Source: an uncultured Gammaproteobacteria bacterium (GTDB lineage Bacteria; Patescibacteriota; Microgenomatia; Levybacterales; GWA1-39-11). From it: a stretch of DNA of 64,000 nt. The position numbers and the translations under genes were made by a program. The stretch covers positions 25,256-89,255 of the forward strand of contig CAZVGS010000001.1 in NCBI GenBank assembly GCA_964627245.1, in the 5' to 3' direction. Of the stretch, positions 4,286 to 7,822 are shown in pieces; the stretch's first letter is position 1, and the number at the start of each line of letters is the position of its first letter. Below the pieces are notes generated by a model, which ran no database searches, was not told the origin of the DNA, and was given only the letters and a program-made list of their open reading frames with translations.

Positions 4286-5516
4286 TTTCTTTTTGAATTT
4301 GTTGTATAAACTTTTCTAATTCGACACTGCCAAGGTCTTTTCCGTCCCTCGCTCTTACAGAAACAAATTTAGATCCTTTCTTGGACTTTTCTTCTTCCTG
4401 ACCGCCTATTATACACATGTAGGGTACTTTTTGTAAAGTAGCCTCACGGATTTTTCCTCCAAGTGTGTCATTGGAAAAATTTCTCTCCACCCTTATGCCT
4501 GCATTTTTTAAGTCGGCAAAGACACTTTGGGCGTATTTTTCAAATTTTTCCGATACGGGAAGAACCGTCACCTGCACCGGTGCAAGCCAAACAGGAAAAG
4601 CGCCATTATAATGTTCGATTAGAAAAGCCATAACACGCTCAATAGCACCTATTGAGGATCTGTGAATTACAATGGGTTGTTCTAAAGTGCCTTTTTCGTT
4701 TATGTAAGTCAGATTAAATCTTTTAGGCATAACAAAGTCGTACTGTACTGTAAAAGCGGTATCTTCTTTACCGTTGGTGTTTTTCATTTGAACGTCAATC
4801 TTGGGGCCGTAAAAAGCTGCTTCATCTTCAGCCTCAACGAAATGAGCCTTTCTTTTCTTAAGAACTTTCCTAAGAGTTTCTTCAGCAGTATCCCAGGCTT
4901 TGTCGTCTTTGAAATACTTCTTGCTGTCCTTTCTATTTCCTAGTGACAAGCGGTAGTGATATTCCTTTCCTTGCTTAAGGTTAAAGACTCCGGCGATGTA
5001 CTCAATCAAATCCAAAACAGAATCAATTTCTCCTTCGGCGTTTTCCTTCTGGGTTATAATATGAGCATCTGCCAGGCAAAATGTCCTAACTCTTTGAAGA
5101 CCCATAAGCTCTCCCGACTGCTCAAATCTATAAAGCTTTGCAAGTTCAGCGTATCTTACGGGAAGTTCACGGTAAGAATGAGGGCGCGAAAGATATAGTT
5201 CAAAGTGATGGGGGCACGTCATTGGCCTGAGCATAAATTCCTCGTCCTCAATTGTAATAGGAGCATACATTGAGTCTTTGTAGTAGGGATAGTGTCCCGA
5301 TTTTTTGTAAAGCTCAAGCTTTGCTATATCGGGCGTATAAACATGCAAATAATCTCTTTTTAGCTCTTCATCCACAATAAATCTTTCAAGCTCCCGCCTT
5401 ATAGCAGAACCTTTGTGGGTAAATAAGGGAAGTCCCTTTCCAACGGTGTCTGAAAATGCAAAAAGCCCAAGCTCCCGCCCAAGTCTTTTGTGATCATTAG
5501 GTGCCAATTCATCCAT
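4269..5516 (-). CDS. thrS: Threonine-tRNA ligase, catalytic plus anticodon-binding domains only (no N-terminal TGS/editing region)
   Basis: 415 aa and begins at the DHKRLGRELGLF region, which lies just after the editing domain in full-length ThrRS. Class II motifs HIITQKEN and FYGPKIDVQ are present. A TATAAT sits 9 nt upstream of the ATG with no SD, so the mRNA is probably leaderless. Confidence 0.88.
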   Translation of the reverse strand: MDELAPNDHKRLGRELGLFAFSDTVGKGLPLFTHKGSAIRRELERFIVDEELKRDYLHVYTPDIAKLELYKKSGHYPYYKDSMYAPITIEDEEFMLRPMTCPHHFELYLSRPHSYRELPVRYAELAKLYRFEQSGELMGLQRVRTFCLADAHIITQKENAEGEIDSVLDLIEYIAGVFNLKQGKEYHYRLSLGNRKDSKKYFKDDKAWDTAEETLRKVLKKRKAHFVEAEDEAAFYGPKIDVQMKNTNGKEDTAFTVQYDFVMPKRFNLTYINEKGTLEQPIVIHRSSIGAIERVMAFLIEHYNGAFPVWLAPVQVTVLPVSEKFEKYAQSVFADLKNAGIRVERNFSNDTLGGKIREATLQKVPYMCIIGGQEEEKSKKGSKFVSVRARDGKDLGSVELEKFIQQIQKEIETKQ

Positions 5517-6490: not shown

Positions 6491-6568
6491 GTGATGCGCC
6501 GGTATGAAATAGCTAGTGCCCTTGGGGTACAACGCTCGCGTTGCCCTGTTTGAAAAAACTAACTGCTG

Positions 6569-6643
6569 TGGACCCGACAGAACTCGAATCTGTGACCTTT
6601 GCAATGTCAATGCAACGCTCTAACCAACTGAGCTACGGATCCA
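6569..6643 (-). tRNA. tRNA-Val (anticodon GAC)
   Basis: Reverse complement reads GGATCCGTAGCTCAGTTGGTTAGAGCGTTGCATTGACATTGCAAAGGTCACAGATTCGAGTTCTGTCGGGTCCA. Cloverleaf folded by hand. Anticodon loop TTGACAT. Confidence 0.85.
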
Positions 6644-7158: not shown

Positions 7159-7188
7159 ATTTTTACCTCCTTTCTTTTAATTTCCCAC

Positions 7189-7233
7189 AAAAAAACCTCC
7201 GCTTAAGTGTTTGGAGTTCTCCAAACTGCGAAG
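7189..7233 (-). terminator. Intrinsic terminator/attenuator hairpin in the leader of the 6775-7158 ORF
   Basis: Minus-strand read: CCTTCGC-agTTTGGAGaaCTCCAAAcactta-GCGGAGG followed by TTTTTTT. It sits ~15 nt upstream of the SD. A second CCTTCGC...GCGGGGG pair lies upstream and could form alternative pairings. Confidence 0.6.
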
Positions 7234-7321
7234 GTCAAATTTGTAAAATTACAAAACCTAACCCCCGCTAAGCGAAGGTAAACCAATAAGTTCTAAATAG
7301 GTTCTGCAATTTCATTAAATA

Positions 7322-7350
7322 AATTTTAGTTCAATTTGTGCTTACTGTCA
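7322..7350 (-). promoter_or_regulatory. Sigma70-like promoter (TTGACA-17-TAAAAT) for the 6775-7158 ORF
   Basis: Minus-strand read: cccTTGACAgtaagcacaaattgaacTAAAATtta. Exact -35 box and 17-nt spacer. Confidence 0.55.
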
Positions 7351-7357
7351 AGGGTAT

Positions 7358-7597
7358 TTACTGCTTTCTTATTTCAATTGCTTGTTCTTTTGGCATCACT
7401 ATAGCCAATCTGGCATTTACATATTCTTCTAAAGCCGGCTCTCCCCAAGTAGACACAATTGCTTGACTTGAAACTTGAATTCCCCGCTGTGCCAATTCTG
7501 TTGCAGATCTCACTACAATGGCACTTCGTACAGAGTCACGGCAGTCCGGTGCAAACCTCATTTCAGCTGGACTAATATTTTTATACTGTTCTGACAT
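7358..7597 (-). CDS. Hypothetical protein, 79 aa
   Basis: ORF with a strong SD (GAAAGGAGGTAAAAT-ATG). It has the same leader module as the ORF at 6775-7158. Confidence 0.5.
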   Translation of the reverse strand: MSEQYKNISPAEMRFAPDCRDSVRSAIVVRSATELAQRGIQVSSQAIVSTWGEPALEEYVNARLAIVMPKEQAIEIRKQ

Positions 7598-7618
7598 ATT
7601 TTACCTCCTTTCTGCCAC

Positions 7619-7645
7619 AAAAAAACCTCCCGTTTGGGAGGTTAG
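7619..7645 (-). terminator. Intrinsic terminator/attenuator hairpin in the leader of the 7358-7597 ORF
   Basis: Minus-strand read: CCTAACCTCCCaaacGGGAGG followed by TTTTTTT, then GTGGCAGAAAGGAGGTAAAAT-ATG. Confidence 0.6.
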
Positions 7646-7734
7646 GCAATTTTCAACTACTTTCCCTCCACACTACTACACTCCGAGAAGGAGTACTCTA
7701 GTAATGTGTAGGTATTTTGATTTCATTTAGTATA

Positions 7735-7763
7735 TATTAATAAATTTTCCTTATTCCTGTCAA
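7735..7763 (-). promoter_or_regulatory. Sigma70-like promoter (TTGACA-17-TTAATA) for the 7358-7597 ORF
   Basis: Minus-strand read: ctgTTGACAggaataaggaaaatttaTTAATAtatact. Confidence 0.5.
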
Positions 7764-7822
7764 CAGTAAGCACCCCCCCATTGTCTATACTTGCCTAGTG
7801 TCTTTTATCTATTGCTACCAAT

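Follow-up and report, generated by a model that had tools for sequence, protein, structure and literature searches.

Two small protein genes with look-alike upstream regions lie in tandem on the minus strand of a 64-kb stretch of contig CAZVGS010000001.1 (assembly GCA_964627245.1, positions 25,256 to 89,255) from an uncultured bacterium. This whole stretch is referred to as the window, and all cassette coordinates below are in its numbering. An earlier reading of the sequence alone (the original prediction) had reported the two open reading frames (ORFs) and the similar cassettes in front of them, and both were found where it had placed them. The cassettes, designated A and B, are analyzed here as candidate leader-peptide transcription attenuators, and the 79-aa and 127-aa ORFs behind them as their cargos. 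Cassettes and cargos are all on the minus strand and are composed of the following features (SD, Shine-Dalgarno sequence; U7 or T7, a run of seven U or T).

Cassette A, 7763-7595, minus strand: near-consensus promoter, structured leader, hairpin with U7, and GUGG/GAAAGGAGGUAAAA module.
Promoter A, minus strand: sigma-70 type, TTGACA 7763-7758, 18-nt spacer, TAATAT 7739-7734, 10/12 matches.
Mini-ORF A, 7726-7676, minus strand: MKSKYLHITRVLLLGV + TAG, ATG 7 nt past the -10 box, predicted control codons Leu12-14 (7693-7685).
Hairpin P1 of leader A, 7712-7665, minus strand: segment 1 paired with segment 2.
Terminator A, minus strand: hairpin AACCTCCC-AAAC-GGGAGGTT (7643-7624), T7 7625-7619, approximately -13.4 kcal/mol for the hairpin alone; as RNA, segments 3:4, AACCUCCC-AAAC-GGGAGGUU + U7 (7643-7619).
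3' end of module A, minus strand: GTGG (GUGG) 7618-7615, extended SD AGAAAGGAGGTAAAA (RNA AGAAAGGAGGUAAAA) 7613-7599, ATG 7597.
Cargo A, 7597-7358, minus strand: orphan ORF of 79 aa, divergently related to the small DPRxxAT..GFSME.G.YID family.
Cassette B, 7351-7156, minus strand: near-consensus promoter, structured leader, hairpin with U7, and GUGG/GAAAGGAGGUAAAA module.
Promoter B, minus strand: sigma-70 type, TTGACA 7351-7346, 17-nt spacer, TAAAAT 7328-7323, 11/12 matches.
Mini-ORF B, 7315-7268, minus strand: MKLQNLFRTYWFTFA + TAG, ATG 7 nt past the -10 box, predicted control codons Tyr10-Trp11-Phe12 (7288-7280).
Long hairpin P1 of leader B, 7313-7245, minus strand: includes segment 1 ACCUUCGC 7279-7272 and segment 2 GCGGGGGU 7268-7261.
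CCTTCGC copies in leader B, 7278-7272 and 7235-7229, minus strand.
GCGGGGG 7268-7262 and GCGGAGG 7202-7196 in leader B, minus strand.
Terminator B, 7236-7189, minus strand: segment 3 ACCUUCGCA 7236-7228, inner hairpin 7226-7209, segment 4 GCGGAGGU 7202-7195, U7 7195-7189.
3' end of module B, minus strand: GTGG (GUGG) 7188-7185, spacer, extended SD AGAAAGGAGGTAAAA (RNA AGAAAGGAGGUAAAA) 7175-7161, ATG 7158.
Cargo B, 7158-6775, minus strand: 127-aa protein of a rare small 4-Cys family, no Pfam domain.

Promoter B has the TTGACA-17-TAnAAT form that had been predicted for both cassettes, whereas the spacer of promoter A is 18 nt instead of 17 nt. The GC-rich hairpin with U7 between promoter and SD-ATG is present in both leaders, and U7 directly follows the hairpin of segments 3 and 4, as in an intrinsic terminator. 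The near-identity of the last ~35 nt was also confirmed; the shared module is made up of two stretches, 16 nt and 15 nt long, that match exactly. For the composite GGAGG-T6..-GTGG-N(2-30)-AAGGRGGT, two instances were counted in the window, and shuffled sequences gave an expectation of 0.00. The folding of both leaders, which the original prediction had proposed as a check, gave z = -4.1 for leader A and z = -5.4 for leader B against shuffled sequences. Both strands of the window were also scanned generically for a promoter with an ATG 5-9 nt past its -10 box that opens 8-40 codons, combined with a hairpin and T-run; cassettes A and B were the only sites returned.

A search for further copies of the 3' module had also been proposed. 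Scanning of metagenomes with this module revealed 97 loci (numbered here with the prefix L), of which approximately 60 show the cassette architecture: a promoter, then, ~7 nt past the -10 box, the ATG of a 13-27-codon mini-ORF whose end coincides with a CCUCC-like segment, and after it a GGGAGG segment, a terminator, a strong SD and a small ORF. The shared 35-nt module is a family-wide feature, not a local duplication. The same pattern had no match among viral contigs, and scanning of genome contigs with the DUF5660 protein, encoded upstream of cassette A, found at least two distant loci. The search pattern itself imposes the GGAGG/CCUCC sequences of the segments, and three routes are independent of it: a generic scan of these loci, homology to cargo B and homology to DUF5660. 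The generic scan of the loci revealed other segment sequences, namely CCCCGC/GCGGGG in L008, CGCC/GGCGG in L043 and UCCCCUU/AAGGGGA in L101, as well as tandem second cassettes in the same loci. Downstream of tig-DUF5660, leaders A and B are likewise present in L106 and L107, fetched only through cargo-B homology, and L109, L110 and L112, fetched only through DUF5660 homology, carry the same A- and B-type leaders. In the relatives a recurrent gene order was found: tig (encoding a short trigger factor), DUF5660, the cassettes, tRNA-Val, an HD protein, DUF5665 and threonyl-tRNA synthetase (ThrRS). The short trigger factor, the DUF5660 and DUF5665 genes and the sampled material, 0.1-µm filtrates of groundwater, suggest a candidate-phyla-radiation (CPR)-like organism. 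Both leaders (MNSKYLHITNALLLGV and MQKLNLFRTYWFTFA) are retained in L006, and promoter A is kept in L006 and L109. L005 has a different promoter and 5' part, yet it contains a 16-codon ORF ending LLLGV*.

The mini-ORFs at the start of both leaders were not recognized in the original prediction. Neither ATG is preceded by an SD, and each is located 7 nt past the -10 box. Thus, the ATG is at the predicted 5' end of the RNA, and the RNA would be leaderless. In both leaders a putatively translatable short ORF lies upstream of the terminator, at the place where an attenuator has its leader peptide. Homologues of mini-ORF A were found in L006, L005, L083, L107, L109 and L110, and those of mini-ORF B in L006, L067, L083, L106, L107, L109, L110 and L112. 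For a broader view, 48 cassettes were defined by RNA features alone with a promoter of at least 9/12 matches. The first ATG is 6-9 nt past the -10 box in 30 of these 48 and exactly 7 nt past it in 17. In 37/37 cassettes the frame of the ATG has no stop codon until 10 nt or less from segment 2, compared with 14/37 for frame +2. The stop codon lies in the loop between segments 1 and 2 in 15 of the 37 and 6-27 nt past the start of segment 2 in the remaining 22. The peptide sequences are variable outside a short run of repeated codons, as in the leader peptides of attenuators. An aromatic run is present in all nine B-type homologues, and its Trp codon is retained in seven of them (absent in L021 and L112).

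Alternatively, the hairpins with U7 would do no more than terminate the genes in front of them, DUF5660 and the 79-aa ORF; the promoter hexamers and mini-ORFs would be fortuitous, and there would be no conditional read-through. Terminator A is the first terminator past the DUF5660 stop codon (7823) and may also end that transcript, and the region has 14 promoter-like sites where 9.0 are expected, a modest enrichment only. This explanation is very improbable in view of the spacing between -10 box and ATG, which peaks sharply at 7 nt, the frame that is open to segment 2 in every one of the 37 cassettes, and the two extra complementary segments upstream of each terminator. Moreover, promoter, mini-ORF and terminator are kept as a unit at many unrelated loci, and codon runs match the genes downstream.

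The four segments of the leaders allow the alternative pairings of an attenuator: 1:2 together with 3:4, or exclusively 2:3. In leader B, the two CCTTCGC and two GCGG(G/A)GG copies had been predicted to form mutually exclusive pairings, and the folding supports this. The last codons of mini-ORF B, ACC UUC GCU, constitute segment 1, and the stop codon is in the loop ahead of segment 2. Segment 3 (ACCUUCGC) with segment 4 (GCGGAGGU) and U7 makes up terminator B; alternatively, segment 3 can pair with segment 2 as an antiterminator. Mini-ORF A extends through the long hairpin P1, the base of which ties up GGAGG (7669-7665). The alternative partner of this GGAGG is the CCUCC of terminator A, for which it is the only partner available. 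The alternative pairing is strong in B (8-bp 2:3) and weaker in A (5-bp 2:3). The minimum free energy (MFE) folds differ among the leaders of the family, with 1:2 + 3:4 in some and 2:3 + 1:4 in others, and the RNAalifold consensus of ten B-type leaders is 2:3 + 1:4. In the alignment of these ten relatives, the 1:2 helix (helix 5) is 95% paired and the 3:4 helix (helix 6) 100% paired. The B-type structure reaches 71%, against at most 51% in controls with slid register.

The effect of a translating ribosome was simulated by masking its footprint during folding, with the position of the A site varied along the mini-ORF. Leader B folds the terminator without a ribosome. When Trp11 or Phe12 occupies the A site, the fold changes to the 2:3 antiterminator and leaves segment 4 free; with the A site from Thr13 through the stop codon, the terminator folds again. 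Among 41 leaders, the terminator is in the MFE fold in 95-100% when the A site is at most 12 nt before segment 2 or beyond, but this falls to 20-56% for A-site positions 18-24 nt ahead of that segment. The codons in this stalling window are predominantly F (49), T (27), Y (24), I (18) and L (16), altogether 134 of 205, unlike the N-terminal portions of the leader peptides, which are enriched in K, N and Q. In the window, the codons at this position are Tyr-Trp-Phe in B, and Leu-Leu-Leu in A if segment 2 is taken as the GGAGG at 7669-7665. With leader A folded before segment 4 is transcribed, 2:3 folds with the ribosome on the Leu codons and is impossible with the ribosome on the stop codon.

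The original prediction had proposed conditional read-through by a riboswitch, a protein or a small RNA. The terminator between promoter and SD upholds the first part of this claim; the proposed effectors found no support. A mini-ORF that is untranslated, with read-through controlled by a riboswitch, an RNA-binding protein or a small RNA, would be compatible with the highly structured leaders (z = -4.1 and -5.4), and a library search is blind to riboswitch classes that are not in it. The Infernal/Rfam search of the window and 11 related loci found no riboswitch, T-box or other cis-regulatory family at the gathering threshold, only tRNAs. The sub-threshold matches were to Phe_leader (RF01859), which is itself a leader-peptide attenuator: 19.7 bits with E = 4.1, a chance level, for window A, and 41.1 and 35 bits for the best relatives, compared with the gathering score of 55. 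Furthermore, there is no conserved core resembling a ligand pocket; the conserved features are the open frame, the codon run and the four segments. Control of this kind is extremely unlikely.

The signal was approached through relatives in which recognizable genes follow the cassette. The leader peptides and the genes downstream of them are listed below.

VYFYF, FYFYF, IYFYF and GFYFT leaders: a small ORF, then pheS (and pheT), in L015, L035, L043, L046 and L058.
NIMMI leader: a small ORF, then metG, in L032.
CYYYF leader: a small ORF, an aminotransferase, then tyrS, in L082.
MTTTT leader: a small ORF, then thrS, in L104.
IIDIII leader: ilvA and ridA directly, in L111, found only through DUF5660 homology.

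The run in the leader corresponds to the amino acid of the downstream gene in nine loci and for five amino acids (Phe, Met, Tyr, Thr and Ile). This is the classical signature of charged-tRNA sensing by a translating ribosome. Since the codon runs match aminoacyl-tRNA synthetase (aaRS) or biosynthesis genes, the translating ribosome is likely to be the sensor. By these matches in the relatives, window A (..VLLLGV) is read as a Leu sensor and window B (..YWFTFA) as an aromatic sensor.

The pheS loci show one more feature. In L015, L043, L046 and L061, an ORF of 65-75 aa, unrelated from one genome to the next, lies between the conserved Phe-type leader and pheS, whose DNA is ~80% identical among them. 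This pheS has no SD, and a -10-like box is located 6-7 nt upstream, so that pheS may itself be leaderless. In L111, an 18-codon ORF (5139-5195) begins with the AUG right after U7, with the GGGAGG of segment 4 at SD distance, and its UGA overlaps the start codon of ilvA (AUGA). This arrangement suggests translational coupling on read-through transcripts.

Taken together, each cassette is probably a ribosome-mediated (leader-peptide) transcription attenuator whose leader peptide would be translated from a leaderless RNA. Transcription would start at, or within one base of, the A of the ATG 7 nt past the -10 box. The RNA would open with the 15-16-codon mini-ORF, the 3' end of which overlaps segment 1. 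Segments 1:2 and 3:4 could pair, with 3:4 and U7 forming the intrinsic terminator, or segments 2:3 could pair as the antiterminator. Without a ribosome, 1:2 would pair and 3:4 would terminate. A ribosome that reaches the stop codon, in or next to segment 2, would mask segment 2, and 3:4 would again terminate. The terminated RNA would end ~110 nt (A) or ~125 nt (B) from the start. When the aminoacyl-tRNA is scarce, the ribosome would stall 13-27 nt before segment 2 and cover segment 1. Segments 2:3 would then pair, and RNA polymerase would read into the downstream ORF, which has a near-perfect SD of 11-15 nt. Cassette A would respond to Leu (CUC CUU CUC) and cassette B to aromatic amino acids (UAU UGG UUU).

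Several observations weigh against this attenuator model. The start site, the translation of the mini-ORFs and the conditional termination are all inferred, as are the signal actually sensed and the functions of both cargos. Substitutions in the mini-ORFs show no clear third-position bias (11, 15 and 18 at codon positions 1, 2 and 3). The antiterminator of leader A is only GGAGG:CCUCC, at approximately -7 kcal/mol compared with approximately -13 kcal/mol for the terminator, and the terminator of leader A is in the MFE fold at every ribosome position tested. Regulation of A would thus have to be kinetic. Covariation is weak, and the alignment shows almost none in the CCUCC/GGAGG segments, because these segments are highly conserved; the search pattern forced CCUCC/GGAGG. 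The cargos of the window (79 aa and 127 aa) have no recognizable link to Leu or aromatic amino acids. In the pheS loci, a small ORF stands between the attenuator and pheS, which lacks an SD and possibly has its own -10-like box. Read-through control is therefore putative for pheS, and it is putative for the other downstream genes too, which may have promoters of their own.

The same architecture might respond to another signal, such as general stress on translation, antibiotics that target the ribosome, damage to tRNAs or an arrest peptide of specific sequence, with the cargo being a stress or conflict response. Neither the cargos of the window nor any of 44 other first-cistron proteins behind such leaders (0/44) matched Pfam or PADLOC, and none has a recognizable metabolic link. 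The mixed F/Y/W runs are less amino-acid-specific than those of classical leaders, and the C-terminal YWFTFA of mini-ORF B is nearly invariant among its relatives. There is also a precedent in upstream ORFs that sense several antibiotic classes in front of a toxin-antitoxin pair (PMC12121999). The codon run, however, fits the downstream aaRS or biosynthesis gene in all nine loci and for all five amino acids, and the peptides vary outside the codon run. A signal other than amino-acid supply is accordingly considered unlikely.

Both cargos are near-orphans, with two matches each in homology searches. Between the window and L005, cargo A has 1 synonymous and 8 non-synonymous codon changes, a pattern of relaxed or diversifying selection. 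Cargo B shows 16, 7 and 27 changes at codon positions 1, 2 and 3 against L006, and this third-position bias is as expected for a coding sequence. It is 62% identical to its counterpart in L109, and its family has 15 cluster representatives among 1.84 billion proteins. AlphaFold2 gave a pLDDT (predicted local distance difference test score) of 34 for cargo B as a single sequence. An alignment of 13 sequences raised it to 49.6, which does not suffice for a fold search. Most first-cistron proteins are singletons, and there is one 8-member family, MSPE(I/V)R. By eye, neither depletion nor enrichment of the sensed amino acid in the cargos was consistent. Every copy from the pattern scan has, as its first cistron past the terminator, a small ORF preceded by a near-perfect SD. 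Exceptions came from the other routes: a separate SD is missing in L067, L107 and L109, and ilvA itself takes this place in L111.

In the few related contigs, conservation is higher in the leaders than in the ORFs that follow. Leader A is followed by the 79-aa ORF in the window, an unrelated 74-aa ORF in L006 and an unrelated 236-aa ORF in L109, in which leader A is kept and DUF5660 is 88% identical to that of the window. Among L015, L043 and L046, identity is 81-88% for the leaders and 78-81% for pheS, while the intervening ORF is at the random baseline of ~60%. Such swapping behind a conserved leader A, together with the substitution pattern of the 79-aa ORF against L005, would also fit leaders that are stand-alone genes for a trans-acting small RNA (sRNA), a functional 15-16-aa peptide or both, with downstream ORFs that are independent or incidental. 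Attenuator-derived sRNAs and trans-acting leader peptides are described for Sinorhizobium (PMC6614838 and PMC7298713). This explanation is quite improbable. A near-perfect SD and a start codon lie 2-30 nt past the terminator in almost every copy, including those found without the pattern, and cargo B and the MSPE(I/V)R family are conserved coding genes that are always behind such leaders. A function in trans would, in addition, supplement attenuation rather than replace it.

The small ORFs are the only identifiable cargo of the attenuators in the window. It is tentatively proposed that the attenuators are coupled to a hypervariable slot and control a starvation-induced repertoire of fast-evolving small proteins, not metabolism. 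In this possible arrangement, a small, strongly translated ORF would be swapped between close relatives while the leader and any aaRS gene stay in place. The window cassettes would then be the pure form, with cargos that could be, for example, effectors or regulators of a host-dependent bacterium with a reduced genome. One more cargo was observed in L008 (3043-3288), behind a Phe-type leader beside a distant DUF5660 gene. It has a Cys-rich tail (..GADGCHSIACGALTGGPCTC) reminiscent of the precursor of a ribosomally synthesized and post-translationally modified peptide.

Several variants of the cassette were observed in the relatives. A third cassette type, absent from the window, is located directly 3' of DUF5660 in L107 (463-575), L067 (673-790) and L039 (604-485), with the mini-ORFs MNRNFSITLTLTLLKG and MTLQLTKTRIFNLLKG. 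The cargo of this type lacks an SD of its own, and its start is 12-17 nt past the GGAGG of the terminator, so that the hairpin would also hide the only SD-like sequence. The original prediction had pointed out that the 3' arms of the terminators are SD-like; this is correct, and in some relatives the arm appears to serve as the SD of an ORF just past the U-tract. Attenuator-like leaders in which the start codon of the mini-ORF (ATG or GTG) overlaps the stop codon of the preceding cargo were found in L067 (~1085-1225) and L039 (~175-30), and no recognizable promoter was found at either. These are possibly translationally coupled, operon-internal attenuators.

GUGG or AUGG follows the U-tract almost invariably, both in the window (7618-7615 and 7188-7185) and in L018, L042, L043, L068, L073, L075 and L083. 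It also occurs in copies outside the pattern selection and in one copy with a segment 4 that is not SD-like. The GUG or AUG was considered as the start of a second tiny ORF coupled to the cargo and was rejected, as no regular length, phase or stop was found in 42 cassettes. Clear coupling of such an ORF to the next gene was limited to isolated examples, among them L111. In L083, DUF5660 and cassette A are separated by ~0.8 kb (5140-4360) of much higher G+C content with an ORF on the opposite strand. L005 has the same junction and the same variant promoter of leader A as L083. The segment looks like foreign DNA inserted at a hotspot.

Three further features lie downstream of the cassettes in the window.

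tRNA-Val-GAC, 6642-6568, minus strand: its 3' half (~42 nt, 22 exact; 6607-6567) is repeated at 6492-6451.
DUF5665 gene of 73 aa, 5792-5571, minus strand: precedes the ThrRS-like gene, and the pair recurs in relatives.
ThrRS-like gene, 5516-4269, minus strand: only 415 aa, with the class II core and the anticodon domain and no N-terminal editing/SAD region.

The repeat of tRNA-Val follows the tRNA at a distance of 116 nt and falls within the first codons of the HD-protein ORF. It resembles an att-like duplication, as an integration at the tRNA would leave behind. No such repeat of tRNA-Val was found in the syntenic locus L083. A sub-threshold Rfam match to Plastid-ycf2 on the plus strand (6568-6642), antisense to tRNA-Val, was rejected as an artefact of the tRNA-like structure.

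Among known systems, T-box riboswitches control aaRS genes in Gram-positive bacteria through terminator read-through on uncharged tRNA. They are functional analogues of the cassettes, which would sense through a translating ribosome and not through direct binding of tRNA. No T-box was matched by Rfam in the window or the 11 related loci. The E. coli-type Phe attenuators (pheL/RF01859 before pheA and pheM before pheST) resemble the cassettes in their short leader ORF with a Phe/aromatic run ending ..FTF(A/P) or ..YFTS before or inside segment 1, in the alternative 1:2/3:4 and 2:3 pairings, and in the terminator of the CCUCCC..GGGAGG-U-run form. A further likeness is the putative control of pheST in relatives. 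The cassettes differ from them in a leader ORF without SD at the predicted 5' end of the RNA, in Phe_leader scores of 19.7, 35 and 41 bits that are below the gathering score of 55, and in a small orphan ORF with a very strong SD after the terminator (exceptions are L067, L107, L109 and L111). Unlike those attenuators, the window cassettes have no Phe-related gene in the window. Two groups of pheL have been described (PMC3082878).

The leaderless form also has parallels. In Deinococcus deserti, fourteen leaderless leader peptides were predicted from transcripts with a 5'-AUG; they are rich in one amino acid and precede aaRS or biosynthesis genes, and transcription attenuation was proposed for them (PMC4007540). 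The Deinococcus cases lie directly before metabolic or aaRS genes, whereas the present family has the terminator-RUGG-SD module, interposed hypervariable small ORFs and members without a metabolic gene. In mycobacteria, leaderless polycysteine short ORFs are present at several loci with one amino-acid signal, and the stalled ribosome remodels the downstream RNA for translational control (bioRxiv 10.1101/834739). The likeness lies in the leaderless sensory ORFs, and members with Cys runs (CCCT and CCSF) exist in the present family as well. The regulated element here is instead a canonical intrinsic terminator of hairpin and U7, the 3' arm of which may double as an SD in some relatives. Literature searches found no description of this attenuator family and no mention of DUF5660. 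Attenuation as such is textbook; within the reach of these searches, what is new is the family, the leaderless form it takes and the coupling of its members to orphan ORFs that are swapped.

If this reading is correct, attenuators with leaderless mini-ORFs would be numerous, with ~60 loci from one narrow pattern search. This regulation could then be annotated in metagenomes, with the sensed amino acid readable from the peptide, by a family that is missing from Rfam. The wiring of the sensors to swapped small orphan proteins raises the question of what such organisms express on amino-acid starvation. It would also mean that an uncultured bacterial lineage uses Yanofsky-type attenuation instead of T-boxes.

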